A stretch of 64,000 bases of DNA from a virus (Duplodnaviria; Caudoviricetes): positions 1,500 through 65,499 of IMG/VR virus record IMGVR_UViG_3300009103_000025. One strand, 5' to 3'. The notes below the pieces were generated by a model that ran no database searches, was not told the DNA's origin, and saw only the letters and a list, made by a program, of their open reading frames with translations. The position numbers and the translations under genes are program-made. Below are positions 22,329 to 57,680 of this stretch, piece by piece (the stretch's first letter is position 1; each line of letters begins with the position of its first letter).

Positions 22329-25300
22329 ATGGCTTTCCTAAAGGTTTTTCAAAGTAACCTATTTGATAACGATCTTTTCTCTATAAACCAGACACTTGGT
22401 AAAACATTTCAGGGGTCTATTTTTGATTCAGATTTATTTCAGCAAGCTCCTACAACTATAACATATGTAAGAAACCCATTCCAGTCTAATATATTCCAAA
22501 AAACATACAACAGTAAGTTATTATTCCAAAAACAATATACACAAATATCATATGGAACTATCGCTAAGTTATTCCAAACTAACATATTTGATGTAGATAT
22601 ATTCCAGCAACCTCATACAATAAATGTTTATCCAAGAAAAGTATTCCAGTCTAATATATTCCAGAAAGTATTATTCCAAACAACTCAGGTAGCTAATGCT
22701 GGTAAATATGTATTCCAATCTGGATTATTCCAAGGAAATGTGTTTGATGTACCAAATTCAATCATTAAAACAATACAAGAAATAATAGGAATAGATGAAA
22801 CAATTCCAAAGGCAATAGGATTCCCAAGAATAACATATGATGCAGTACAACTTGTTATGCAAGTATATAAGGTCATGGGTAAGACAAAATCTAGGTCAGA
22901 TTTAGAAAGAATAACAGAAGTATTCTATCATACGAGGGCTCGGAGTAAACCATTAACACCAGATGTTGAAAATGTAGTAGAATTTATCGTTTATAATAAA
23001 ACCACAGACACCACTTATGTGTTTAAGGTATTTCAATCAAATATATTCCAGAGTAACGTATTCCAATTTAAGTATAAGAGAGTTAGAGAAACAGCAAACA
23101 AAGTATTCCAATCAATATTCCAGAGTGATATATTCCAAACATCAGGTCATAAGGTACAGACAGTACCAAAAACATTCAGCAGTATATTCCAAAGTGATGT
23201 ATTCCAAGGTAGTTATGATAAGACAACTGTTAACAGAAGTGTATTCCAATCTGGTATATTCCAAGTAGGACTATTCCATCAAACAATACAGAAATTCAGA
23301 GAAGAAAGAGACACGATATCTGTATCAGAAACTGTTTCATATGCTAAGGGTAGACCACAATCTATCTCAGAAACCGTAGGAATTACAGAACAAAACAACT
23401 ACATAGAGAACGCATCTGGTAGAGAATTATCTGAGACCATAACAGAGAATGTAAACGTAAGTGAAACAACCAAATCATCTGTAGGAAAAATAAAAACTGT
23501 AAGTGAAACATCATTAGTAAATGAAACAATAGTAGGAGAGCCTGCAAGAGATCCAAATATTGTTGCTAAATTATTCCAGACAAATGTATTTGACCAAGAC
23601 ATATTCCAGAAGAGGTATCTAAAGACAGTAACATCAGTAGGAAAGGTATTCCAGACAAACATATTCCAATCAATATTCCAGCAAGCATCTAACCCACAAA
23701 CTGTAGGTAAATTATTCCAGAATAATGTATTCTCTACAAAGATATTCCAATCTGATTCATTCTTAAGGACTTCATTAGGTAAAATACAAACAATATTCCA
23801 AGTAGGAGTATTCCAGTCAACAGCATTCCAAACAAAGGTACCAATACCAAAGGTAGCACCACTTGATACTGTAGGAATAACAGAGACAACATCAACGAGA
23901 AGAATACGTGATAACTTTAAATCAGTAACTGAAACAGTAGGAATATCTGATACACCTACAAAGGTAGAAGGATTTGTAAAGACATCAAGTGATACTATAG
24001 GAATCACAGATACATTAACTAAAGTATTTGGTATTGTTAGACTTGGTTCTGACTCTGTTAATATTAATGAATCAATCTCAGTAAAGATACACAAACAAAT
24101 AGATGAAAACATCAATGTCAGTGAGTCCATAATAAGAAAGAGAGACCTAGTAAGAGTGGTTAATGAGAATGTATCAGTAACAGAATACAGATTCAAACCA
24201 GTTGAGAGAGTAAGAGTTGTAAGCGAAACTGTTAATGTTAATGAGAGTGTTGTATTCCCATGGTACAAGAACATAACAGAAATAGAAAACATAAACGAGT
24301 TAGTAGTTAGGGCAAGAACAATACTAAGAACAATAACTGATAACATTGAAATTAATGAAAGTGGAACACCAAAACACTATGCAATAGAACCAAGTTATGT
24401 AAGCAAAGTATTCCAAACCAATGTATTCCAGCAAGATGTATTCCAGAAACTATATGATAAGAATGCAGTTAAACCAATAATATTCCAGTCTAATGTATTC
24501 CAGTCTGATATATTCCAGCAAAAACTACAACCATTAGAAAGAACTGTAGGTTCAATATTCCAGACTAATGTATTTGCAACCAATGTATTCCAGAAAACAT
24601 TTGATGCAACTGCACCACTTAATAGATTATTCCAGAGAAATGTATTCCAGTCTGATGTATTCCAGAAGAGATACCAACTATCAACTGCTGTTAAGAAAGT
24701 ATTTGATGGAGATGTATTCCAGAATAAAGTATTCCAGACTAAAGCATTTGATACTGCTATCACAGTTTCAAGACCAGTGTTCTCAGGTATTTACCAATAC
24801 CCACTGTTCCAAGCACCAGAACCAGTAAAGAAGTTTGTCGAAGATACAGAAGAGATAGTTGAAACATTAAGAGTAGTATTTGGTTCATCTCAGAGACCTA
24901 CTGATGTAATAAATGTTACAGAAGCATTATCTAGAGCAAGGACATTAGTAAGAAGTGTTAGTGAAACTGTTAATGTAATAGATACACCAGCACTATTCAA
25001 ACAAAGAACATGGAAGATAGCAATACCTGAAACAGTAGGAATTACTGATGAGATATTAACAAAGAAGAGACAGGTTACATACTTTGTCAATAAAGTATTC
25101 CAAACTAATATCTTTGACCAAGATATATTCCAGAAGAGATGGGATGAACATAGAATCGTACCAAAACTATTCCAAACTAACATATTTGACACTGATGTAT
25201 TCCAGCAAACATTCAACAGGTTTACTATTCCAGCTGTATTCCAATCTAATGTATTCAGTGGTAAATTCTGGCAGAAAGGATATGACACTAGAAAACTTGG

Positions 25301-28300
25301 TAAGTTTGTATTCCAGCCTTATGTATTTGATAGTGATGTATTCCAAGCACCAATTAGTAAGAAGGATGTCGTATATGATACAGTTAACATTAGTGAGGCA
25401 GTAAACAAAGTAGAAGGATTTGTAAAGGCTGTTAGTGATACTGTAGGTATTACAGAAGGAGTTAATGTATTAAAACAAAGAACAATAACAAAGACTGTTA
25501 CAGAGAATGTAAACGTAAGCGAGATAAACAACAGAGCAGTTCCACTAGTTAGAACTATCAATGAAAATGTATCTGTAATAGACCTTACCAAACATAAGAA
25601 AGAGCAAACAATATTCACAATTCCAAGAGTATTCCAAACTAATGTGTTTGATAATGATGTATTCCAGCAATTATGGGATCCATCTAGTACCTCTGTTAGT
25701 AAAGTATTCCAGTCTAACATATTTGATACCGACTTATTCCAGCAAGGATATAACACAAACATTAAGCCAGCTGTATTCCAGTCTAACGTATTCAATAATA
25801 AAGTATTCACTACAAAGGTATTCAACATACTAAAGAAATCAACTGTAGTATTCCAATCATTTGTGTTCCAGTCTAATACATTCCAGTCTGCAATAGGTAG
25901 AGCAAAATCAGTTTACGAATCAATAGGAATTACAGATGCATCTGCAATAGTGAAAGGATTTGTTAAGACTGCTACAGATAGTGTAGGTGTGTCAGAAACA
26001 ACACAAAGTATTGTTAGAAAGACACTAACAAAGACTGTTACAGACACTGTTTCATTAAGTGAGACACTAGCAAGGGCAACACCAAAGAAGATTACATTAA
26101 CAGAGAATGTATCTGTACTTGATACATATTCATCTTACTTCAAGAAACAGACAATATTCACTATCCCAAGAGTATTCCAGACTAACATATTTGATAATGA
26201 TGTGTTCCAGCAGTTATGGGATCCATCTAGTACAAGTGTTACAAAGGTATTCCAGAGTAATATATTTGACAGTGATGTATTCCAGACATCAACATTTGAT
26301 ACCACTGTTACACCAGCAGTATTCCAAAGTAATGTATTCAATAACAAGGTATTCACTACAAAGATATTTGATAGTAAGACTATATCAACTGTAGTATTCC
26401 AGCCTTATGTATTCCAGAGTACTGCATTCCAATCTGCAATAGGTAGGTCAAAGACAATATATGACATAGAAGGAATAGTTGAATCAACATCAATAGTTAA
26501 GGGAGATGTTGTACCTACTGCTGATACTGTAGGAGTAACTGAACAAGTCAACAGTATTGTAAGAAAGACAGTTAAAGCAACTGTTACAGAAACTGTCAGT
26601 GTAACTGAAGCAAACAATAGGGCTGTACCAAAATTCATAACTGTAACTGACAATGTTGCAATTAAAGATGATAAGACATCATACTTAGACAAACAGGTAA
26701 TATTTACTATCCCAGCAGTATTCCAGACCAATGTATTCGATGGTGATGTATTCCAGAAGCTATGGGATCCATCTAGTACAACTGTTAAGAAAGTGTTCCA
26801 GTCTAATGTGTTTGACCAAGATGTATTCCAGAAACAATACATTACAACAACAGTTCCAAAAGTATTCCAAACCAATGTATTCCAACAGAATATATTCCAG
26901 AAAGCAACAGACACCACAAAGAAACAAACATCTGTATTCCAACAGGGAGTATTCCAGCCAGATGTATTCCAAGCACCTACAGCACTTAACAAGGCAGTTT
27001 ATGATACTATTGGTATTACAGATAGTGAGAATCATAGATTTGGATTTGTTAAGACTGCAAGTGATAGTATCGGTATTTCAGAATCAACATTCTCTGGTAA
27101 GGGTAAGACAGTATCAGTCGTTGATAATGTATCATTAATAGAAACAACACAGAAAGTTATACAGAAGGTACAGGTAATAATAGATACTGTAAAGTCTATA
27201 GATACTACAGTACCATTCAGATGGAGAACTGTTACATTCATTTACAGTCCATTCCAATCCAATGTATTCCAATCCAATGTATTCCAAGACAGATATGAAA
27301 TATTCCCAAGTGGTAGACGTAGAGAAAAGATTGAGAAGGTATTCAGTAGTATATACCAAAGCGATGTATTCCAAGGAGACATATACGACACCAATCTGGT
27401 CTATAGAGTATTCCAGCCTACAATATTCCAGCAACCTTCATTCAGTTATCCAAAGGCAATATTCCAGAGAACATATTACAAGTCTGACATTGAAGAGAAA
27501 GAGACAAAGATATACCAAGAGAATATATTCCAGCATAACGTATTTGCAACAAGAACACCTCTACACATAGAGGAACTAAACCACTATGTAATAGAAGAAG
27601 TAGGAATAACGGAGTCAATATCTGTTAAGAAGGAGTCATTTGTATCTGTAGTAGAGAATGTATCTATTGGAGAAGCCACACAACCAGTAAGAACATTCAA
27701 CAAGACAATTACAGAACCAGCAGTATCTATCACTGAAAGTGTAGATAAAGCAAGAGAGATGAGTAGAATTGTTGATGAGAATGTATCTATAACAGAAACA
27801 ACTGGTAGACTACTGAACAAGTTCAAGGCTGTTGCAGAATCAGTTACAGTATCTATATTCCAAGGAGTACAAGAAAGAGCAAGAACAATCTCAAGAACTG
27901 TAACAGATAATGTAAGTGTCAGTGAGACAAAACAATACGCTATAGGATTAATCAGGTGGATATCAGACTCTGTAGGTATCACTGAAGCATTCAACAGATT
28001 CAGAGGTATTGCAAGACCAATAGCAGAAACAATCAATGTATCTGAAGGAACTGATAGAGTAAGAACATTGATTAGACATGTAGCAGAAAGTGTACCAATC
28101 AATGAGGCTGTAATAAAAGCAAGAACATTAATCAGAGTATTCACTGAGTCATTATCTGTAAGCATATGGCAACTCAATAAGAGATCAAGAGTACTTGCAA
28201 GAACAATAGGTGAGAGTATATCCATTGCAGAATCTAAATACAAGAAGATTGAAATAATCAGAGTAATAACAGACACTGTAGGTATCACTGAACTTATTAC

Positions 28301-31300
28301 AAGATTCACTGAGAAATTCAGAAAGATATCTGAGAGTATAGCAGTTAATGAATCATTAGTAAGAGTTAGAACATTAATTAGAAAACTATCAGATAATGTC
28401 AGTGTATCTGAATCAGTTGTAAGAACAAGAGAGATACTAAGAATATTAACAGAGTCTCTAGGAATTACAGATGTAGTTACAACATTCAGAGATAGGTTCC
28501 AAGCAATATCTGATATAGTTGAGATAGTTGACTTCAGAGGTAGAGTAAGAGAGTTAATCAGAGTCATAGTCAATGAGACCGTGGGTATTACTGAATCATT
28601 AGTAAGACTAAGAGTATTAAACAGAGTGGTTAATGAAGTAACTAACATCAGTGAAACAATTACAAGATTCACTCAGAAGTTCAGAACAATCACTGAGAAT
28701 GTTTCAATAACTGAGGCAGTAGATAAGGTTAGAACAATAATAAGAACACTCACAGATAATGTAGGTATCACAGAAACAATAACTAGAGTAAGAGAATTAG
28801 TTAGGGCTATAAGTGATTCTGTAACAGTCAATATATTCCAAGGTAGATTCAGAGTACTTGCAAGAACAATAGCAGACTCTGTTGAAGTGTCTGAATCATT
28901 AGTAAGAGTAAGAGGATTAATAAGAATACTATCTGAGAATACAATCATATCTGAATCAATCACAAGATTCACTGAGAAGTTCAGAAGTGTTACAGAGAAT
29001 GTAGCAGTTAATGAATCAATAATAAGAGTAAGAGAATTGTTGAGAATGATATCTGATAATGTCAACATATCAGAGTCTGTAGTAAGAGTGAGAGAATTAA
29101 TCAGAATGATTAGTGACTCTGTAGGATTAACAGATGTAATAACAACATTAAGAGAGAGATTCCAAGCAGTGTCTGACACCGTAACTATAGAAGACTTCAG
29201 AGGTAGAGCAAGAGAGTTAATTAGAATCATAGTAACTGAAACGGTGGGAGTTACTGAGTCATTAGTAAGAACAAGAACACTGAATAGAATCATTAGTGAG
29301 ATTACCAATATATCTGATACAATCCCACACTTTAAGACAATAAGTAAGGCAGTTGCAGATACTGTTGAGATAATCGAGACAGCAGTTAAGCAATATGTAA
29401 TCATGAGAATGATTAATGAATCTGTTACAATATCTGAGAGTGTATTAAGAACCAGAGTACTTAATAGAATCATCAATGAGATAGTTAATGTAACTCAGTT
29501 CCAAGGAAAGGTAGCTGAACTGGTCAAGATAATTAGTGAGTCTGTAGGAATAACAGAATCAATAGTAAGACTAAGAGACCTAATAAGAATCATTAATGAG
29601 ACAGTTAATGTCAATGAGGTTACAAAGATTCTACACTTCTTACAAAGAACAATAACTGAACCAGCAGTAGTAATATCTGAGAATGTAATAAGAAGTAGAG
29701 TACTTAACAGAATCATCAATGAGATTGTCAACGTATCTCAATTCCAAGGCAAGGTAGCTGACATTGTTAAGATAATAACTGAAACAATAGGTGTATCTGA
29801 CAGCATAGTAAGACTGATTGGTAGAGTAAGAATCATTGCAGAATCTGTAGACATAACAGAAACAAAGGTCAGAATAAGAGAAATTGTTAGAATGTTAACA
29901 GATACTGTCAACGTTAATGAGATTACAGACAGAGTAAGAGACTTAATCAGAATGATATCTGACACTGTAACAATAGATGACTTCAGAGGAAGAGCCAGAG
30001 AACTAATTAGAATAGTAGTAACTGAAACTGTCAACGTATTAGAGAACGCAACAAAAGCAAGAAGTATCATAAGAACAATAGCAGATGCAACATTGGGTAT
30101 TACAGAATCAATAGTAAGGTTCAGAGAGATCTCACGCATACTATCAGATACTATCAATACTAACGAGACTTTAGATACTATTAGAAACAGATTTGGTATA
30201 ATAACAGAATCTGTAATCATCTGGGAGAGTATAGAGAGAGCAAGAACATTAATCAGAAACATTGCTGATACTGTAACAATAGATGACTTTAGAGGTAGGG
30301 CTAGAGAACTAATTAGAATAATAGTCAGTGAGACTGTATCAATAGGAGAGTCAATAGTAAGACAATCTACAATAACCAGAGCATTTACTGAGGCTGTAAC
30401 AATAACAGAATCAGTATTAAGAACCAGAGAATTGACCAGAATATTATCTGACACAATCAATGTATCTGATATAGTAGGTAGAATACGAGAACTATCAAGA
30501 ATAATCAGCGATACTGTATCAATAGATGACTTCAGAGGAAGAGTAAGAGAATTAATCAGAATAATAGTCAATGAATCGGTGGGTATTACTGAAACTACAA
30601 AGTTCGCAATAGGAAAGTTCAGATCAATAGCAGATACTGTAATCATTACAGAAGGATTTGCAAAGGTTCAAGGTATAGCAAGAACCGTTGCATTAGATGC
30701 AGTTAACATCACTGAGTCTGTATTGAGAACCAGAGAGTTGAGCAGAATCATCAATGAGATAGTTAACATATCTCAATTCCAAGGTAAATTAGCAGATATA
30801 ATAAGAGTAATAGATGAGACTGTTAACATCTCAGAAACTGTTGTAAGAGTAAGAGACTTACTAAGACATGTTACAGACAGTGTGACAGTAACACAGTTCA
30901 GACAAAGACTAAGAGACTTAGTAAGAGTAGACACTGCTATTGTACATATCATAGAAGGAATACCAAAACAACTAGGATTGTCCAAGGTAATAAACGAGGA
31001 TGTTAACATCACTGAGTTTAGAAATGTATTCAACAATTTGATATTAATTATCAATGAGACAATACATGTAACAGAATCATTCATACTATTGGTAAGATTC
31101 GGATTTGGATTGGTCACTGGTTCAATAGGTTCATCTGTAGTACAAAACACATTGAGAACACACAATAAGACAGCAGATGTTGTAACAGCATTGAGAGATA
31201 AATCTATCAAGATATATATGAACAGTAAATCATTGAAAGAAGAGGCTAAGAGTAAGGCTGAAAGAGTGGCTGATAAAGCAAAGTCAGTCGCAACTGAGGC

Positions 31301-44960: not shown

Positions 44961-46912
44961 GTGAAACTCAATATACTGAATCAGCACAGGTTGATAGAAT
45001 AAAAGAACTTCTAATGACCAATGAGTGGATTGACCAAATTGATAGGTTAAGACCTACTGATAGCCTAACCATAGATGTATCTGACCCTAAATGGGTAGAT
45101 ATTTTCCTTTATGATGAGGGAGGTTTTACCGATTTTGCAAGAAGAGCAATTCAAGAAATTCTTCAGCAAAAACACGTAGGTATAGACATCTCAAAAACAT
45201 TTGGTAGATTAAAAATCAGATTAGCATCTGAGAAATTAATTCCTATGGAGGAAATTAACTCTAAGAAAGAGGGTGAAAGTGTATCTTTCACATGTAATAT
45301 AATTGGAACCGATGCACCAAAAACATTTGTCAAAGAGGCTGATGTTATGTGTGACCAGTGTTTCACTGTAGAGCATGTTAAGGCTGGATTTGATAGGATT
45401 TTACCTACATTAATGTGTATGAATCCATCATGTAAAGGCAATAGAATGGATGTTCAAAAAACTGGCTTAGTAACAGAAGATATCCAAACACTCATTCTTC
45501 AACAACCATTAGAAAATGCAACTAAGAACTCACCAATAACATTCTATGGTAAAGTGACAGCAGACCAAGTAGGAACTTCATTTGTAGGTCAACGTAAGAA
45601 TATAATTGGCATATTCAGAAGTATTATTGACCCAAAGAAAGATGAAAATGAGGTATTAATTGATGTGTTATCAATAACTGATGTTGATGATGTAGAGGAA
45701 ATAGTTCCTACTCAAGCAGAAGAGGAACAAATTAAGAAGGATGTCAAAGATGAAGACTTTGTTGAGAAACTAAAAAACAGTTTTGCACCTCATATTTACG
45801 GATATGATGACATTAAACTGTCATGTATACTCCAATTACTGGGGGGTGTACCATCAAAGAAACGTGCAGATATTAACATCCTATTAGTGGGTGACCCATC
45901 AATGGCAAAATCTGAGCTATTGAAATATGGTAATCTGGTAACCCAGAAATCAATATACACATCTGGTAAAGGAACTACCAGTGCTGGTCTAACAATCGGT
46001 ATGGTAAAATTACATGATGGTAGAATGATAGCACAGGCTGGTGTTTTACCACTTTGTAATAACGGTCATGCATTTATTGATGAGTTTGACAAAATGAATA
46101 AAGATGATAGAAGTTCAATGCATGAGGCAATGGAACAGCAAACAGTATCAATAGCAAAAGCTGGTGTCACAATGACATTAGATGCAAAGGCATCAATTCT
46201 GGCAGCTGCAAACCCAAAGTTTGGTACTTATGATAGTAATCTATCATTAATGGATAACATAAACATACCAAGTCCATTACTATCTAGATTTGATTTAATC
46301 TGGCTAATAAAAGACAAAGTAAGTTTAGTCGAAGACAATGCAAAAGCAAATCACATATTAGATGGATTTGCATCAAACGAACCAGATAAATCATGTAGAT
46401 TTACTGAGAGACAATTAACAGCATTTGTTAATATGGCAAAAAAATGTACACCAGAACTCACAAGAGAAGTTCGTGATGAAATTGTCAGAATATATGAGAA
46501 ACTAAGGCAAGCATCAAACGAGCAATTCACTGTAGGAATAAGACAGTTAGAGGCTTTGGTTAGACTTTCTATGGCTCATGCAAAAATGAGATTGAAAGAT
46601 AAGGTAGAAATAGAAGATATAACAGCAGTCCGTGATTTGTTAGTATCAATGTATGCACACTTTGACATAGATATATCACAAGGAGGTTCACAAGCTAAAT
46701 TGTTTACCACTGGTACTATGACAAAAGAACAGAAATATCATACATTATGGTCTGAGTGCGCAGATAAAAACGGAAAGGTTAAATTGCAAGACTTTATGAA
46801 AAAGTTAGAGGAGAATGGATTATCAAACCTTGAAGCAGTTAAACTATTTCATAGATGGGAGAACACAAACACAATAAAGTTGATGGCAGATGGCACGTAC
46901 AAAAAAACCTGA
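44957..46912 (+). CDS. mcm: MCM replicative helicase
   Basis: Zn finger, GDPSMAKS, IDEFDKM, LLSRFD, sensor 2 IRQLEAL; no intein evident. Confidence 0.97.
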   Translation: MSETQYTESAQVDRIKELLMTNEWIDQIDRLRPTDSLTIDVSDPKWVDIFLYDEGGFTDFARRAIQEILQQKHVGIDISKTFGRLKIRLASEKLIPMEEINSKKEGESVSFTCNIIGTDAPKTFVKEADVMCDQCFTVEHVKAGFDRILPTLMCMNPSCKGNRMDVQKTGLVTEDIQTLILQQPLENATKNSPITFYGKVTADQVGTSFVGQRKNIIGIFRSIIDPKKDENEVLIDVLSITDVDDVEEIVPTQAEEEQIKKDVKDEDFVEKLKNSFAPHIYGYDDIKLSCILQLLGGVPSKKRADINILLVGDPSMAKSELLKYGNLVTQKSIYTSGKGTTSAGLTIGMVKLHDGRMIAQAGVLPLCNNGHAFIDEFDKMNKDDRSSMHEAMEQQTVSIAKAGVTMTLDAKASILAAANPKFGTYDSNLSLMDNINIPSPLLSRFDLIWLIKDKVSLVEDNAKANHILDGFASNEPDKSCRFTERQLTAFVNMAKKCTPELTREVRDEIVRIYEKLRQASNEQFTVGIRQLEALVRLSMAHAKMRLKDKVEIEDITAVRDLLVSMYAHFDIDISQGGSQAKLFTTGTMTKEQKYHTLWSECADKNGKVKLQDFMKKLEENGLSNLEAVKLFHRWENTNTIKLMADGTYKKT

Positions 46913-47957
46913 TAGCAACCCTTATAAGGTAGATGATGATAAGGAGAATATGTCTGGGGTCGAGGAAATAGCAAAAGCTGACGCTCAAGAAGAGCAAGTA
47001 CTTGACCTAGGCATCTCTCAACTAGATGGTGTCGGAGCTGTCACAGCTAAGAAACTAACTGACTTTGGCGTATCATCTCTAATTGATATCTGTATTAGGG
47101 GAGGTAGAGAAATATCTGAAATTACAGGTGTTGCAAAATCCAAAGCAGATGGTTGGGTTTTTAATGCTCAGAAAATATTAGAAGAGAACAATCTAATAAG
47201 AAAATCTGACATGGATGTAATAGATTTAATGGAATATCAGGCAAATTACCCTACCTTAGAAACCAAATGTACTGCAATAGATGAGTTATTTGGAGGAGGA
47301 GTAAAGCCAGAATGTACATATGAAGTATATGGAGAATTCGGTTCTGGTAAAACACAATTCTGTAATACACTCACATCTCAAGCAATAAATGATGGTGAGA
47401 ATGTAGTATGGATTGATTGTGAAGATACTTTCAGACCTACAAGAATATTAGAAATAATGAAAGCAAGAGAATATGTTGAAACAAGAGAGGATATGGAAAA
47501 GGCATTAGGTCGTATACAATATTATTATACTCCAAATACTGAGCAACTTCTAGGAACTATTAATGCATTATCAAAAATAATGGAGGAAAAAAGACCAAGA
47601 TTGGTAATCATAGATGGTGCTATAGGACAATTTAGGGAGGAATATCTAGGTAGAGGAACTCTAGCAGATAGGCAAAACCAAATTGCAAGACTAATGACTC
47701 ATATCAAAAACATATCATATTATTTTAGAACAACTGTTATCTACACAAATCAAGTACAAACAGACCCATCAGTTATGTTTGGAGACCCAGTAAAACCTAT
47801 TGGGGGTAATGTTGTAGGTCATGCAGCTACTTATCGTATTTATTTTAAGAAATCAGGCAAAAAAAGAATAGCAAGAATGGTTGATTCACCAGAACATCCA
47901 CAAGCAGATGCAGAATTTGCCCTCACAGAGAAGGGTATTGAAGACAAAGAAGATTAA
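46890..47957 (+). CDS. radA: Archaeal RadA recombinase
   Basis: N-terminal HhH, GEFGSGKTQ, IDCEDTFRP, GRGTLADRQ, RIARMVDSP. Confidence 0.97.
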   Translation: MARTKKPDSNPYKVDDDKENMSGVEEIAKADAQEEQVLDLGISQLDGVGAVTAKKLTDFGVSSLIDICIRGGREISEITGVAKSKADGWVFNAQKILEENNLIRKSDMDVIDLMEYQANYPTLETKCTAIDELFGGGVKPECTYEVYGEFGSGKTQFCNTLTSQAINDGENVVWIDCEDTFRPTRILEIMKAREYVETREDMEKALGRIQYYYTPNTEQLLGTINALSKIMEEKRPRLVIIDGAIGQFREEYLGRGTLADRQNQIARLMTHIKNISYYFRTTVIYTNQVQTDPSVMFGDPVKPIGGNVVGHAATYRIYFKKSGKKRIARMVDSPEHPQADAEFALTEKGIEDKED

Positions 47958-47980
47958 ATACTATGTATGCCTAACCATAA

Positions 47981-48078
47981 TGTGTGGCTAGAGCATGATT
48001 ATAAACATACAACACCATGTGAAAACATGCCAAGGTTTAACTAATCGTTTCCCTGCATTGATGCCACATTATTTTTTC
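47981..48078 (+). ncRNA. Candidate structured ncRNA 2
   Basis: TTAAATA box ~28 nt upstream; five nested stems capped by a GAAA tetraloop; T-tract downstream. Confidence 0.55.
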
Positions 48079-48098
48079 TTTGGGGGTAATTAAACATT

Positions 48099-48530
48099 AT
48101 GAACCCAAGAGAAAGAATGAGACAATCTAACAGACGAGCTGTAAACCATCTTTTATCCAAAGGATATGATGATATCTGGTTGAAACCACATGGTAGAAGA
48201 CAAGATTTAGTATATACTTTAGGTGAATGGTATAGAGCACTTGACTTATGGAATCTATTTGATGGAATATGTTTTGACCCACTCGGTAATATAGTCCTAA
48301 TTCAAATAAAAACAAATGCATGGGCTCAAGCAAAACCAATAACAGATTTCTTAGCAAACAAAAACAACCTTAAAGCATTAGTTATAAATGTAAAGGTTAC
48401 AGGTAAAAAATGGGAGGTACTTATTAGAGAATATGAATCCAATAATAGGAAAAGGCGAAAAAACTGCTCTCTCCGTCGTAACAGAATTGTTCGGAGAAAA
48501 CGCATATTATCTAACACAGGTACCGTTTAA
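48099..48530 (+). CDS. Hjc-like Holliday junction resolvase / PD-(D/E)XK nuclease
   Basis: L..KGY, DLWNLFDGI, LIQIKT. Confidence 0.7.
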   Translation: MNPRERMRQSNRRAVNHLLSKGYDDIWLKPHGRRQDLVYTLGEWYRALDLWNLFDGICFDPLGNIVLIQIKTNAWAQAKPITDFLANKNNLKALVINVKVTGKKWEVLIREYESNNRKRRKNCSLRRNRIVRRKRILSNTGTV

Positions 48531-48822
48531 AGACCTTCTATCCTCTGAGTTTTATGAGGATGGTCTTTCAGAAAGACAGAAGAAAGAGTCTGTCGATATA
48601 GTTGTTTGGACTCTTTTTGGTGCTATATGTGTCAGAGTTAACGGAGGAGACCACACTGGAGTATTAAAATCCCAGAGAGATTCGGTGCAAAAGAAAATGT
48701 TAGAGTGGTCTGGTCATAAAGTGGTTGATTTATGGTTCTACGATTGTCCTACATTATTCAAAGAAGAGTTGAATGATGAGTCTAGAAGAGAGGTTAAGGA
48801 AGCCTTTTACGGTCTAATATGA
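48433..48822 (+). CDS. Vsr/DUF559-like endonuclease
   Basis: GKGE, SVDIVV, VRVNGGDH..RD...LEWSGHKVVDLW. Confidence 0.6.
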   Translation: MNPIIGKGEKTALSVVTELFGENAYYLTQVPFKDLLSSEFYEDGLSERQKKESVDIVVWTLFGAICVRVNGGDHTGVLKSQRDSVQKKMLEWSGHKVVDLWFYDCPTLFKEELNDESRREVKEAFYGLI

Positions 48823-50930: not shown

Positions 50931-52712
50931 TTAACGTAGAACTGATTTAACTAAGTTTTTGAATCTGTTTACAACAACATCTGATGCATCATACATAGAA
51001 CGCACATTCATTATTCTCTTTTTACCAAAGCATTCTTCTAAGAACCATTCTCCATACTGATGCATTCCTACTGAAACAATCATAATATTTGGTGTGGTTC
51101 TTCTTGCTCTCAATAAAGCCTTTTGATTCATTGCCAAAAGTTGTTTTTTCTTTAAAGAATAATAGTTGTTTTGATATTGTGGTAGTCCGTCTGTAATCAA
51201 AATCATTAATTTCTTCTGTCCTTTCATCCTTTTTAGTTGTCTAGATGAGTAATCTAGGGCTAAATGGGTAGGTGTCATCATGCATTGACCATCATTTCCA
51301 GTTACTATTTGGTTACAATCCTCTAAGTTATTGATGTCAGTTATACCAACATCACCTCTTTGGTTAGATGACCAAACATTTGCCTTTAATTCTATGTTAG
51401 GATAGTCTTTAACACTTGCAAATAATGATGCGACGAGTTGTCTTGCAACCTCTATTCTGCCATTTTCCATGGAACCAGAGGCATCTACACTGATTACAAC
51501 CGATGCTCCTTGATGTCTTTTTACATCCTTAAAGCATTTTGTAATATCATATCCTCTAATTTGGTTCTCAATATAGGCATCAATATCTATTTCATCACCA
51601 TCATAACCCACAGTAGGTCTAGACCTTTCAGTGATTGTTCTAAATATCTTTCTTAGACCAATTACTGTATCATTATCTAACTCTATACTATCAGACTTAT
51701 CACGATTCACTCTTAAGACGTACGATGGTACAGGTGTTTCAGTACTAGTTGATTCTTCACCCATTGAGTCTTGAATTTCTTGAATCTCTTCTTCACCACG
51801 TTCAGCCTGTTGAGACTCAAGCTCACTAAGTGCGTCTTCATCACCTTCTGCTTCTGCTATTTCATCAATTAAATCATCGTCTGTTTGTGAATCTAATGGG
51901 TCATCAGATAACTGTTGATGGTCTTTACCATCACCTTCAGTACTATCATGCTCCCATTCTTTATCCTCATCCGAATCATGTAAAGGCATATTCTCTTCTA
52001 TTGATTTCTCATATTGTGCTGTTTGCATCTTTGGAGGTAGTTGTTTCTTACGTTGTTTATCTAACTCCTTAAAATATTCATCCACAATGTGTTTTAATTT
52101 AGACATTTGGACTAATGCACCCAGTCTACCACTACCTACAATGTCATTTAATGCTTGACCTAACTCCTTTGAGTGTTTGAATTTTCTACCAGAAACTAAG
52201 TCATCCCTAAAGAATCTATGCATAAGTAGAATATCAACTGGATTGTTTTTTATTTTATTTTTATTAAATTTTTTACCTAGATTTGTTCTTGCTTTTACAA
52301 AACGTTTTTCATTTGCTAGCCAAAGTCTAGCCATCATAGATTCTATTCTTTGGTCTTCAAGAACATTCATCATATTCCACATCATATCATATCTCTCTTG
52401 ATTATGCCAATCTTCTTTATGCATCCATTTTTGCAATAAGTCTTTCATTTCTGGCATAGGTGTTTGCATCATAATATGACCTATTTCATGATTAAATGCA
52501 GTAAATTTCTCCAGACCTTTAACGGCAGGGGTTGCTACATTTAATATAAATTCTGTATTATTTGGTTTTTTATTATTTAAATTCTTATCGATAACTTTGT
52601 TATCATCATCCCAGTATGTAAGGTCAATCTTACAATCTCTCACATGTTCAGCAATATCTGCTGTCTTACGAAAGAATTCTTTGTCCGATAATAAGTCACG
52701 ATTTCTAGCCAT
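50931..52712 (-). CDS. VWA-domain protein (CobT/NorD-like partner of a MoxR AAA)
   Basis: HEIGH, NVLEDQRIE, acidic linker, MIDAS DASGSM, ITDGLP. Confidence 0.9.
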   Translation of the reverse strand: MARNRDLLSDKEFFRKTADIAEHVRDCKIDLTYWDDDNKVIDKNLNNKKPNNTEFILNVATPAVKGLEKFTAFNHEIGHIMMQTPMPEMKDLLQKWMHKEDWHNQERYDMMWNMMNVLEDQRIESMMARLWLANEKRFVKARTNLGKKFNKNKIKNNPVDILLMHRFFRDDLVSGRKFKHSKELGQALNDIVGSGRLGALVQMSKLKHIVDEYFKELDKQRKKQLPPKMQTAQYEKSIEENMPLHDSDEDKEWEHDSTEGDGKDHQQLSDDPLDSQTDDDLIDEIAEAEGDEDALSELESQQAERGEEEIQEIQDSMGEESTSTETPVPSYVLRVNRDKSDSIELDNDTVIGLRKIFRTITERSRPTVGYDGDEIDIDAYIENQIRGYDITKCFKDVKRHQGASVVISVDASGSMENGRIEVARQLVASLFASVKDYPNIELKANVWSSNQRGDVGITDINNLEDCNQIVTGNDGQCMMTPTHLALDYSSRQLKRMKGQKKLMILITDGLPQYQNNYYSLKKKQLLAMNQKALLRARRTTPNIMIVSVGMHQYGEWFLEECFGKKRIMNVRSMYDASDVVVNRFKNLVKSVLR

Positions 52713-53022
52713 TGTTTATCTCCTCAAACTTTTGTCTGTTTAGATAGTCCGTGGCTATTACTCTTTTACCAAACTCATTACAAGTACCAAACGACTTCAT
52801 TGGTTGTTCAGACTTTGTAACTGTATTCTTATTTCTCTTTCTTTTTGATTGGTAAAAACCAGCCTTACTCATAGTCATAAGAATAAAGTTTGGCTTGTAG
52901 TCTTCTGGATGTTCAGTAACAGCACAAACAGGGCATAGCTGATATTTCTTCCAGCATTGACCTTTGGCTCCTCCTCTACATCTAGTTCTAGAGCACATTT
53001 TACAGCGTACCATTAGATACAC
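52705..53022 (-). CDS. Cys-rich hypothetical protein
   Basis: CKMC, CPVC; lies between the AAA and VWA genes. Confidence 0.6.
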   Translation of the reverse strand: MYLMVRCKMCSRTRCRGGAKGQCWKKYQLCPVCAVTEHPEDYKPNFILMTMSKAGFYQSKRKRNKNTVTKSEQPMKSFGTCNEFGKRVIATDYLNRQKFEEINNG

Positions 53023-53047
53023 TCCTTGTTTTTAAAAAAATATTGGG

Positions 53048-53992
53048 TCATTTGAGATTCACCCCAAATGTTTCATTAGCTCTTGCTTTGATTAATTCCC
53101 TTTCGTTAGGGTCAGTGTACTTGATGAGAATTGTCTCTTTAATTGTTGTTTCAAGAATTTCAGCTGGTGATGCGTCTGGCATATCTTCCAATAAATCTCG
53201 ATATACTTCAGTGAATTGTATTAAATCTCTAGGAGATAACACATATTCTATATTGCCTTTTGTTCTTAAACTGTATGTATCTTGTCCAAGTGTTAGAAGT
53301 GGATTTTTAACATATTGTTCTGGAATATCTTTCCAATCTACAACTCTTGTTACCTCTTCAACAGAAGGATAGTCCCATACAGAACCAATTAAACGACTTC
53401 TCAAGTCTTCAGTTAGGTTATTTACTCCAGCATATTCAACTGGGTTTGTTGTAAGAATGATTGCTAATTTGCAATTTTCTTTTAGTCTGTAAGTTTTACC
53501 TCCAGCACTACAACTAGCCCTTTTGTCAAATGGTCTGTTAACCCATTTCTGAATGTCTTCTTCAAGAGCACCGACTTCATCAATGTATAGACATGCATGT
53601 CCAAAATGATTTGCTACTTCAAAAGCAGTAGGCAATAGTCCTCTCTCAAAATAAGAGCCATTTTTGTCAACTTGTAATCTACCTTGTAAATCACTTCTAT
53701 TGGTACCTACTCCACAGTTAAACTCTACTAATGCTATACCTTTATCTCTACATATGGCATGAACTAAAGAAGTTTTACCAAGTCCTTTAGCACCATAAAT
53801 GAGATATGGTTTATCTGCACGTTCAATGACACGTTCTACTCGTTTACGTTCACCATGTAAGTCAACGTATTCTCCCATATCATCTATGTTTTCTGGTGAG
53901 TATTCATCAAAGTTGATGCTGTTAATTCTACCAACAGCTTCATCTTTTTCCTCAGAAATGTTTTCAAGATATTTCATATCGTCTTGTGACAT
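53048..53992 (-). CDS. MoxR-family AAA+ ATPase (CobS/CbbQ-like)
   Basis: GAKGLGKT, LYIDE, TTNP..YAG, LRSR, SPRDL. Confidence 0.9.
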   Translation of the reverse strand: MSQDDMKYLENISEEKDEAVGRINSINFDEYSPENIDDMGEYVDLHGERKRVERVIERADKPYLIYGAKGLGKTSLVHAICRDKGIALVEFNCGVGTNRSDLQGRLQVDKNGSYFERGLLPTAFEVANHFGHACLYIDEVGALEEDIQKWVNRPFDKRASCSAGGKTYRLKENCKLAIILTTNPVEYAGVNNLTEDLRSRLIGSVWDYPSVEEVTRVVDWKDIPEQYVKNPLLTLGQDTYSLRTKGNIEYVLSPRDLIQFTEVYRDLLEDMPDASPAEILETTIKETILIKYTDPNERELIKARANETFGVNLK

Positions 53993-56623: not shown

Positions 56624-56745
56624 TATGTATCTGCACACTCCGTAAGTTTAGAATAACATTTTTCACATAAATTCCATATTACACCATCATGTGTATACCA
56701 TTGTTTCTCTGTTTTATGTCCACAACTGGTTTTTGGAAGTTTCAT
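56623..56745 (-). CDS. 40-aa Cys/His mini-protein
   Basis: Hand translation MKLPKTSCGH...LCEKCY; TAATG coupling at both ends. Confidence 0.55.
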   Translation of the reverse strand: MKLPKTSCGHKTEKQWYTHDGVIWNLCEKCYSKLTECADT

Positions 56746-57212
56746 TAGAAATCACCCCTTCTAACTTGATAACAATTTAATCCTATTTTACGCCACATTT
56801 CAACAACCTTTTGTCTGTCATCAAATGCAGTAACTGGATTAAAACCATCGTTTGTAATTTGCCAGTATAATTCTTCTTTAACAATCTCATCAGGTCTAAA
56901 GTCATCATCTTTTCTTAAATATAATTTATTATATCCCACTCCAGCTTGAGCTAATTGTTGTATTGTAACTTTTCTATGTCTCTCATTTCTAGCACTGGTA
57001 ATAATTACTTTTTCTCCAGCATCATATAATACTTCAGCTATCTTACAAACATCATAATTTGGTCTGTCCCACTCAAGCATACATTCAGGGTCTAGGAATA
57101 AATCCCAGTTCATAACTTTATCTTCATCTCTTTTTGCAAGTTTAGCACGTGCAACACGTAACTCTACATTCATTAAGGTACCATCTACATCAAAAATATA
57201 ATCTTCAGTCAT
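56745..57212 (-). CDS. HAD phosphatase, like the T4 PNK 3'-phosphatase domain
   Basis: FDVDGTL, TSAR, DFRPDEIVKEE, FDDR..VV.MWR..G. Confidence 0.9.
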   Translation of the reverse strand: MTEDYIFDVDGTLMNVELRVARAKLAKRDEDKVMNWDLFLDPECMLEWDRPNYDVCKIAEVLYDAGEKVIITSARNERHRKVTIQQLAQAGVGYNKLYLRKDDDFRPDEIVKEELYWQITNDGFNPVTAFDDRQKVVEMWRKIGLNCYQVRRGDF

Positions 57213-57296
57213 TATTATCATCTCCTTTAAACTGAGCGTAACAATCCCTACACATTGGAGGGTATGAAGTCCAGTCTATACTATTATGCATACATT

Positions 57297-57569: not shown

Positions 57570-57626
57570 AGTAATTATACCATAAACTCATATAAAAGAC
57601 TTACTAACCAGTAACGAATTAATTTT

Positions 57627-57680
57627 AAAAAGAAAAGAGTATTTGGCTCTAAGAGCCTCCTCAAATATCATCTTTTCTAC
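57627..57680 (-). ncRNA. Candidate ~55-nt hairpin sRNA 3
   Basis: Full promoter unit (57703-57741) with no start codon at the expected position; the transcript folds into one hairpin ending in a U-tract. Confidence 0.55.

Follow-up and report, generated by a model that had tools for sequence, protein, structure and literature searches.

A previously uncatalogued three-way-junction RNA family in archaeal tailed viruses

The stretch of DNA considered here (the window) comprises 64,000 nucleotides (nt), positions 1,500 to 65,499 of the IMG/VR record IMGVR_UViG_3300009103_000025, which is a complete 65.5-kb virus genome with direct terminal repeats. Positions 47981-48078 of the window lie in the gap between a RadA/Rad51 gene (radA, 46890-47957; Pfam Rad51 match, E 8e-55) and a gene for a protein of 143 amino acids, called res below (48099-48530). 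This gap almost certainly holds a member of a real structured RNA family, about 70-100 nt in length, which matches no family of Rfam 15 and is previously uncatalogued. The consensus fold of the family is a three-way junction of helices P1, P2 and P3, with an optional hairpin, P2b, at the top of P2, and with the two junction strands UAGA and CAUUGAU (Table 1). The reading that we favor, at a probability of about 0.45, is that the element is a self-promoted viral RNA with a core resembling a k-junction (an elaborated kink turn, or k-turn), which doubles as a leader and modulates the output of the nuclease gene that res may be.

A first-pass annotation of the window had placed in the same gap an independently transcribed RNA of rod shape, capped by a GAAA tetraloop. 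Its prediction of a structured, non-coding RNA is borne out by conservation and by covariation across relatives in four helices. The shape is another matter: judged from the alignments, the rod and the tetraloop are an accident of one sequence, and the real element at these coordinates is the junction.

Evidence for the three-way junction

A search with RadA retrieved 62 related viral loci, in many of which the intergenic DNA is conserved. A two-block motif, consisting of the invariant blocks GGCUAGA and GCAUUGAUGCC with 44-70 variable nt between them, has one match in the window, where 0 are expected, and is present in 36 of the 62 RadA-linked loci. In A1, a MAFFT alignment of 27 distinct copies, 90.1% of the cells form standard pairs, as compared with 32-49% when the partners are slid by 1-3 columns. 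Changes on both sides of a pair are found in 15 of the 21 pairs, and the covariation score is reached by none of 500 shuffles, a statistic that overstates independence because the sequences of the family are related. RNAalifold run on A1 predicts P1, P2b and P3 independently; P2 was read from the alignment. The paired fractions of the helices in A1 are 96.3% (P1), 73.5% (P2), 98.7% (P2b) and 91.7% (P3), the value for P2 being lowered by one-nucleotide register shifts in some members. A2, a model-fitted alignment of 37 copies, and as such biased towards the model, gives 89.3% paired cells and double changes in 18 of the 21 pairs.

The elements of the fold differ in how much they vary. The first three pairs of P1 are conserved as GGC/GCC. 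The middle pair of P3 covaries (AU in 20 sequences, UA in 3, CG in 2 and GC in 2); the distal part of P3 is variable, with hairpins that differ in length and sequence among relatives, and the inner stem AAC/GUU assigned to the window was taken from a constrained fold. P2b is absent from the shortest members, which have two nucleotides in its place. The strand UAGA has a sole variant, UACA, in a weak chromosomal match described below, and CAUUGAU is nearly invariant, its final U being replaced by A or C in a few members. Besides the helices, no extra covarying column pairs that would indicate pseudoknots are present in the alignment. Complementarity between the P2 and P3 loops is confined to subgroups, as in the case of CCCAA in P2 and UUGGG in P3.

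Table 1. Features of the element and its surroundings in the window. Column and base numbers of the alignment follow the first sequence where so indicated.
Feature	Position	Strand	Remarks
TATA-like box TTAAATA	47954-47960	+	overlaps the radA stop codon (47955-47957)
P1, 5' strand GUGUGGC	47982-47988	+	pairs with 48063-48069; both-side changes in 5 of 8 pairs
J1/2 strand UAGA	47989-47992	+	columns 14-17 invariant in 27 of 27; also in 37 of 37 rows of A2
P2, 5' strand GCAUG	47993-47997	+	pairs with 48026-48030; double changes in 4 of 5 pairs (A1) and 5 of 5 (model-fitted)
UAUAA, internal or terminal loop of P2	48000-48004	+	AUA (A26, T27, A28) invariant
P2b, optional apical hairpin	48005-48020	+	ACAU (48005-48008) with AUGU (48017-48020); double changes in 4 of 4 pairs
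AAA, 3' side of the P2 loop	48022-48024	+	A47 and A48 invariant, A49 at least 90% (first-sequence numbering)
P2, 3' strand CAUGC	48026-48030	+	partner of GCAUG (47993-47997)
P3 hairpin	48031-48055	+	C48031-G48055; A48032 bulged (conserved); AGG (48033-48035) with CCU (48052-48054)
J3/1 strand CAUUGAU	48056-48062	+	G80-A86 (first-sequence numbering) invariant in 27 of 27
P1, 3' strand GCCACAU	48063-48069	+	partner of GUGUGGC (47982-47988)
T6 run	48072-48077	+	likely archaeal termination signal (predicted termination)
res, 143 amino acids	48099-48530	+	preceded by GGGGGU at 48082-48087

The rod is a correct description of how the window folds when taken by itself. All of its pairings are present, namely a closing stem and the inner helices GCA/TGC, TGATTA/TAATCG, TAAAC/GTTTA and CATGT-GAAA-ACATG, and jointly they make up the minimum free energy (MFE) fold of 47981-48078, at -19.8 kcal/mol. 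The z-score, which the first-pass annotation had proposed as a check, is unremarkable (-1.28, with 19 of 200 shuffles folding at least as well), and the opposite strand does no worse (-1.43), so that the window sequence alone establishes nothing. Across the 27 distinct homologues the closing stem stands, with 96.3% of its cells paired, but the four inner helices are poorly kept (51-63%). The tetraloop hairpin is paired in just 50.9% of the family cells, and family-wide its bases serve as the 3' strand of P2. For many members the MFE fold is the junction: in the nearest relative (L001) and the L010 group it contains 19 of the 20 pairs of the junction consensus, compared with 7 of 20 in the window.

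Strand and coding potential

The paired cells include 43 G-U and 18 A-C combinations, which indicates an RNA that is read from the + strand. The same strand-specific excess of G-U speaks against an element that works as DNA, whether as an origin or as a cruciform for recombination or packaging, and so does a TATA-like box that is locked in position, as described below. The location in a replication and recombination module, between MCM-RadA and the putative resolvase, would suit such a DNA element, and a stem followed by T residues would suit a mere terminator hairpin of radA. The element, however, keeps company with the downstream gene and not with radA when an ORF (open reading frame) is inserted, and a multi-helix junction with invariant single strands exceeds the needs of a terminator. 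We regard both possibilities as very improbable.

A small leaderless protein gene is hardly credible as an explanation. The idea comes from one subgroup, where an ATG at the head of P1, and at the predicted start of the RNA, is followed by a frame of about 30 codons (MWLD...). In its favor, an ATG-initiated ORF of 25 codons or more runs across the element on the + strand in 24 of the 37 copies, the frame (T)GG-CUA-GA is open through 39 of the 64 distinct cores, and the genes of the virus look leaderless. The lengths of the 64 cores, however, fall in all three phases (34/18/12), which puts the invariant 3' block in three different frames, and about 20 of the cores have an early in-frame stop. 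Close relatives of 81 and 82 nt differ in frame, an ATG start is present only in the subgroup with a GUGGC-type P1 beginning AUG, the stems show compensatory changes, and the invariant blocks show no third-position variation. We attribute the 24 ORFs to the relatedness of the copies and to conserved blocks that happen to be free of stops. Translation of some copies is possible. As far as the sequences tell, there is no conserved reading frame, and the element does not belong among small protein-coding genes. The 25-codon ORF that overlaps it in the window, whose conservation had been named at the outset as evidence against an RNA, is likewise not conserved among relatives.

Transcription signals

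The box at 47954 was noticed in the first-pass annotation, and its spacing indeed equals that found before the virus's own genes. The hexamer TTA[TA]A[TA] occurs upstream of P1 in 23 of the 37 copies, with a background of 4.4% per 18-nt window; because of the kinship among the copies, a nominal probability exaggerates this enrichment. Relative to the first P1 pair, the hexamer starts at -27 to -30 nt in 22 copies and at -36 in one, and this position is kept in varied upstream contexts (the 3' end of radA, an inserted ORF, or stand-alone sites). At the ORF starts of the window the same hexamer peaks at -28/-29 (17 cases), and 23 of 71 ORFs have a box between -36 and -24, which suggests that many genes of the virus are transcribed as leaderless mRNAs. 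The shared spacing predicts an RNA start at about 47981-47982, that is, at the first base of P1. The T-tract reported after the closing stem is also present in the window (Table 1), and a run of at least four T follows directly after P1 in 20 of the 37 copies.

The downstream gene and placement of the element

In 32 of the 37 copies P1 is followed at 8-29 nt by the start of a res homologue on the same strand, and in 24 of the 30 new metagenome variants such a homologue follows the element. Where an ORF has been inserted after radA (intergenic distance 236-453 nt), the element stays beside res, not radA. The description 'independently transcribed' therefore fits the RNA only in part: the element has a TATA-like box of its own, but the closeness of the downstream gene makes it likely that the RNA is also the leader of that gene. 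A gap of 8-29 nt is too short for the type of promoter found in this genome, so that res would be read from the promoter of the RNA, through the T-tract in those copies that have one. The protein itself has no match in Pfam or the PDB. Among the named clusters of the ESM Atlas, those of Hjc come nearest (0.90 and 0.89), a lead that makes an Hjc-like nuclease possible.

The limits of res vary among relatives. At the start (48099-48119 in the window; also in L005-L027 and L060) the codon is ATG, TTG, GTG, ATA or ATC, while the peptide NPRERMR is conserved, as is an upstream GGGG(G)U, and the ESM Atlas record begins at residue 7. This leaves two options, the use of near-cognate start codons or a true start at the internal ATG at 48117. 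At the other end, a DUF2726-like ORF (48433-48822) overlaps the last ~98 nt of the 143-residue ORF, and relatives mostly align to only its residues 1-112 or 1-125, so that the basic C-terminal tail of this ORF may not be real.

Some copies are placed differently. In L104 the element, which has a box and a T-tract of its own, is placed antisense between two genes of the minus strand and is divergent from a gene with a weak VRR-NUC match (E 2.5e-4). In L055, L261 and L297 the next gene is convergent and appears HNH-like, and after it comes the DUF2726 gene that in the window is found behind res. The element precedes a Mu-like portal gene in L106 and lies 490 nt before a Prim-Pol-like gene in L288, and it has no close gene in L123 and L316. 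Taken together, these placements suggest that 'box plus RNA', with or without the T-tract, behaves as an autonomous module, usually in the recombination region. The gene that replaces res in L055 (4228-4782, -), L261 (2062-2403, -) and L297 (1679-1999, +) is on the opposite strand, encodes about 106 amino acids and is 69-95% identical among the three; it has no match in Pfam, and our reading of it as HNH-like is based on its Cys/His pairs.

The copies in L104, L055, L261, L297, L123, L316, L106 and L288 cannot lead res. They favor a discrete, purely trans-acting RNA of about 90 nt, which might for example serve an RNA-binding or junction-binding protein of host or virus as a cofactor or sponge, and whose position would merely reflect the gene order of the recombination module. 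The element's own TATA-like box at gene-like spacing, and the T-tract in 20 copies, are consistent with this idea. What makes a purely trans-acting role somewhat unlikely in our view is that the next gene lies so close to P1 in 32 of the 37 copies that there is no room for a separate promoter, and that in the 17 copies without a T-tract the RNA must run into the gene.

Distribution of the family and probable hosts

The covariance model R1, built from A1, finds only L017 (a copy that is cut off) and L055 among the 26 RadA loci that lack the motif, and confirms 10 of 38 further viral loci found by pattern (E <= 0.001). The viral pattern matches in L127 (inside an ORF), L082 (58% G+C) and L095 were rejected. 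A three-block motif scan of metagenome contigs gave 85 stretches, and 64 of the 80 that were fetched pass the model at E <= 0.001. In total, 101 aligned rows represent 64 distinct core sequences of 56-88 nt.

In cellular genomes (596 Gb), the 18-base motif has at least 120 matches; about 500 would be expected by chance according to our estimate, which takes 18 fixed bases and 31 spacings. Only one of 80 loci fetched, L166, passes the model (E 9e-6), the rest having E >= 0.0085, and the bacterial matches are accordingly dismissed as chance. L166, 2.5 kb in length, is a contig from a Nitrososphaeraceae bin, and the exact motif is present in one of 401 Nitrososphaeria genomes, on that same contig. 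The model was also run on 151 Nitrososphaeria genomes, under filtering so strict that the known copy in G001 was missed, and gave two weak matches, one of which (G025) is without P1. By these counts the element does not appear to be a regular host RNA. The other weak match, in G121 (9698-9813 of L253, from a 2.8-Mb contig), is a divergent copy that scores 36.6 bits and has the junction strands UACA and ACGUUGAU. It lies inside a 2-kb stretch without long ORFs on a Nitrososphaeria chromosome, and may be the remnant of a provirus.

The carriers, a clade of tailed viruses of archaea that encode MCM and RadA, probably infect ammonia-oxidizing Nitrososphaeria. This host assignment is based on the L166 contig, the contig with the divergent chromosomal copy, and a contig of 44 kb that was assigned to a Candidatus Nitrosopelagicus bin and has a RadA with 72% identity. 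The virus of the window encodes a portal protein, a large terminase, a tail tube protein, MCM and RadA. Its MCM matches archaeal tailed viruses only, at less than 30% identity, and its radA-res region has no blastn match among GenBank phages.

An Infernal/Rfam search, also proposed in the first-pass annotation, came back empty: at gathering thresholds there are no matches in the whole window (Rfam 15, 4227 models). At E <= 10 the region 47900-48150 matches only snoTBR4, with 14.2 bits against a threshold of 83. ARAGORN finds no tRNA or tmRNA gene in the window. The literature searched, which did not extend to subscription journals or supplements, holds no account of such an RNA in archaeal viruses.

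Proposed mechanism

The mechanism that we favor builds on parts that the data support directly, namely the family, its fold and strand, the promoter-like box and the linkage to a gene, and adds to them, as predictions, a k-junction geometry, a binding partner, termination and regulation. Transcription of the + strand would begin at about 47981, driven by the element's own TATA box (47954-47960). In the folded RNA, the G-A of UAGA and the G-A of CAUUGAU would form tandem sheared G.A pairs that extend P1, and AUU would be a three-nucleotide loop, with P3 as the regular helix 5' of the loop and P2 inserted opposite. Such a k-junction core would set P2 beside P3, and so give a compact core with a binding surface for a protein, for example an L7Ae-type or other junction-binding protein, or with a pocket that takes a small ligand. 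In the window, the T6 run would end most transcripts and give rise to a discrete RNA of about 95 nt. The Hjc-like gene shows no obvious separate promoter; in read-through transcripts the RNA would serve as the 5' leader of this gene, and the state of the fold would set the amount of nuclease made.

Several observations weigh against this mechanism, in addition to the relatedness of the family sequences mentioned above. The window's own MFE fold, with its unremarkable z-score, is the rod, and the junction is 4.2 kcal/mol costlier by nearest-neighbor rules. A k-junction would need one extra nucleotide (U47989 or A47990) in its non-bulged strand, and C48056, which precedes AUU, has no conserved partner. 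The virus has no L7Ae gene, so that any such partner would be host-derived, and inspection of the flanks revealed no conserved alternative pairing of the kind that would serve as an expression platform. Both ends of the RNA are predictions. The lack of a T-tract in 17 of the 37 copies means that termination is not a feature of the family, and in some members res could have a separate promoter in a TATA-like stretch within P3. The linkage to res has exceptions as well. In L018, L035 and L046, res lies directly after radA (intergenic distance 0-31 nt) without the element; the model finds nothing in the res-bearing loci L002-L004, L031, L047, L050, L051 and L058; and at least 11 copies (5 of 37 and 6 of 30) are not followed by res.

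A bolder proposal is that the family is a new functional class of RNA, whose k-junction core senses a metabolite or a protein, or self-cleaves, and thereby times a Holliday-junction-type nuclease while the virus infects ammonia-oxidizing archaea. We consider this unlikely.

Structured regulatory or catalytic RNAs are barely known from archaeal viruses. The 64 variants, the four covarying helices, the 18-nucleotide invariant junction and the mapped promoter-like box provide a basis for probing, binding and reporter experiments. The probable hosts, marine ammonia oxidizers, are major players in the nitrogen cycle and are hard to study genetically. Should the core prove to be a k-junction with L7Ae or a ligand as its partner, it would add a case of this architecture outside riboswitches and ribosomes, and would offer a way into the timing of recombination enzymes by these viruses.

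Relation to known RNAs

A k-junction is a k-turn elaborated into a three-way junction, as found in thiamine pyrophosphate (TPP) riboswitches (PMC4005666). The layout of the element is like that given in the sections of this source drawn on here: G.A/A.G pairs 3' of the AUU loop, P1 as the non-canonical helix and P3 5' of the loop (PMC4005666). In the same comparison P3 and P2, both supported by covariation, occupy defined positions of the k-junction (PMC4005666).

The k-turn letters of the element, the G-A of UAGA and the AUU-GA of CAUUGAU, are invariant; the sheared pairing that they would form is predicted. The continuous non-canonical helix of a k-turn (3b.3n, 4b-4n) is not found, since U and A lie opposite a single U before GGC/GCC. 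The extra nucleotide departs from the standard form in a way known from 'complex' k-turns. Position 3b.3n of k-turns tolerates variation of the kind seen in the final U of CAUUGAU, which changes to A or C. To TPP riboswitches the element has no sequence similarity and no Rfam match, and the rest of the RNA is unrelated.

The core also recalls archaeal box C/D RNAs, in which box C is RUGAUGA and box D is CUGA. UUGAUGC in the element is similar to box C and CUAGA to box D, and the order, D and then C, is that of the internal C'/D' motif. In contrast to these RNAs, the element has no guide regions and no second pair of boxes, its D-like box has an inserted A, two covarying hairpins replace the short loop, and its flanks pair with each other. 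A box C/D small RNA (sRNA) was therefore rejected as the identity of the element: the D-like box is 5' and the C-like box 3', in reversed order, and the interior consists of hairpins, not guides.

In size (70-100 nt), and in having a junction closed by P1 with invariant nucleotides, the element is like the aptamers of purine and TPP riboswitches. It resembles them also in its side-by-side helices with conserved loops, in its position upstream of one gene family, and in the T-tract found in about half of the copies. It differs from them in the lack of a conserved alternative pairing, in that some copies are upstream of no gene, and in its occurrence in archaeal viruses, and it matches none of Rfam's riboswitch models.

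The topology of the junction invites comparison with the hammerhead ribozyme, with which the element shares three helices and the circular order of junction strands of about 7, 4 and 1 nt (the shortest ranging over 0-2 nt). A catalytic RNA that excises itself from the radA-res transcript would be in keeping with this layout, with the G-C pair that closes P1, with the invariance of the junction in 64 variants, and with the loop-loop complement CCCAA/UUGGG in one subgroup. The letters of the junction nevertheless differ from the hammerhead core (CUGANGA, GAAA, cleavage-site H), and even a threshold of E <= 10 brings up no ribozyme family of Rfam 15, so that self-excision appears improbable. The hammerhead itself was rejected on the strands CAUUGAU, UAGA and C/CA and on the absence of an Rfam match.

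Among viral RNAs, phi29 pRNA and the Y-RNA-like RNAs of phages are comparable as self-promoted RNAs of about 100 nt with a three-way junction. There is no match to them in sequence or by model, no Ro60/TROVE protein was found (Pfam), and the element is not at the end of the genome. In sum, the core resembles k-junctions and C'/D' motifs, the size and placement resemble those of riboswitch aptamers, and with the hammerhead only the topology is shared. We rate the element as a probable new family within the small structured viral RNAs or leader RNAs.

Other features of the genome

The first-pass annotation had grouped the element with candidates at 1003 and 57627 as a possible set of small structured RNAs. 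This grouping is not supported: the covariance model finds a single copy in the whole 65.5-kb genome. The region 57625-57680, between two minus-strand genes, is a simple but strong hairpin that is flanked by A/T runs (z -3.67 on the + strand and -1.94 on the - strand); it looks like a hairpin of the terminator type, not related to the RNA family. The region 995-1110 gives no fold signal (z +1.19), is relatively G+C-rich and comes after a TTTATATA box. Of five related virus records, one (G403) has a 96% identical version of its 25-nt core at about 1005-1029. The region may be a site that is conserved as DNA, and not a structured RNA.

The tail region contains one ORF of 3020 amino acids (22329-31391), whose only Pfam match, to DUF2489 over about 50 residues, is uninformative. 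On the minus strand, at 50931-53992, an AAA_5 ATPase gene adjoins that of a 593-residue protein with a C-terminal VWA domain, and we read the two as a CobS/CobT-like pair. A Ro60/Y-RNA relationship was considered for the VWA protein (50931-52712) and rejected, because the protein has no TROVE or PDB match and has an AAA_5 neighbor as in CobS/CobT. Further along the same strand, the gene at 56745-57221 encodes a protein with a PNKP-type phosphatase domain (E 1e-32).

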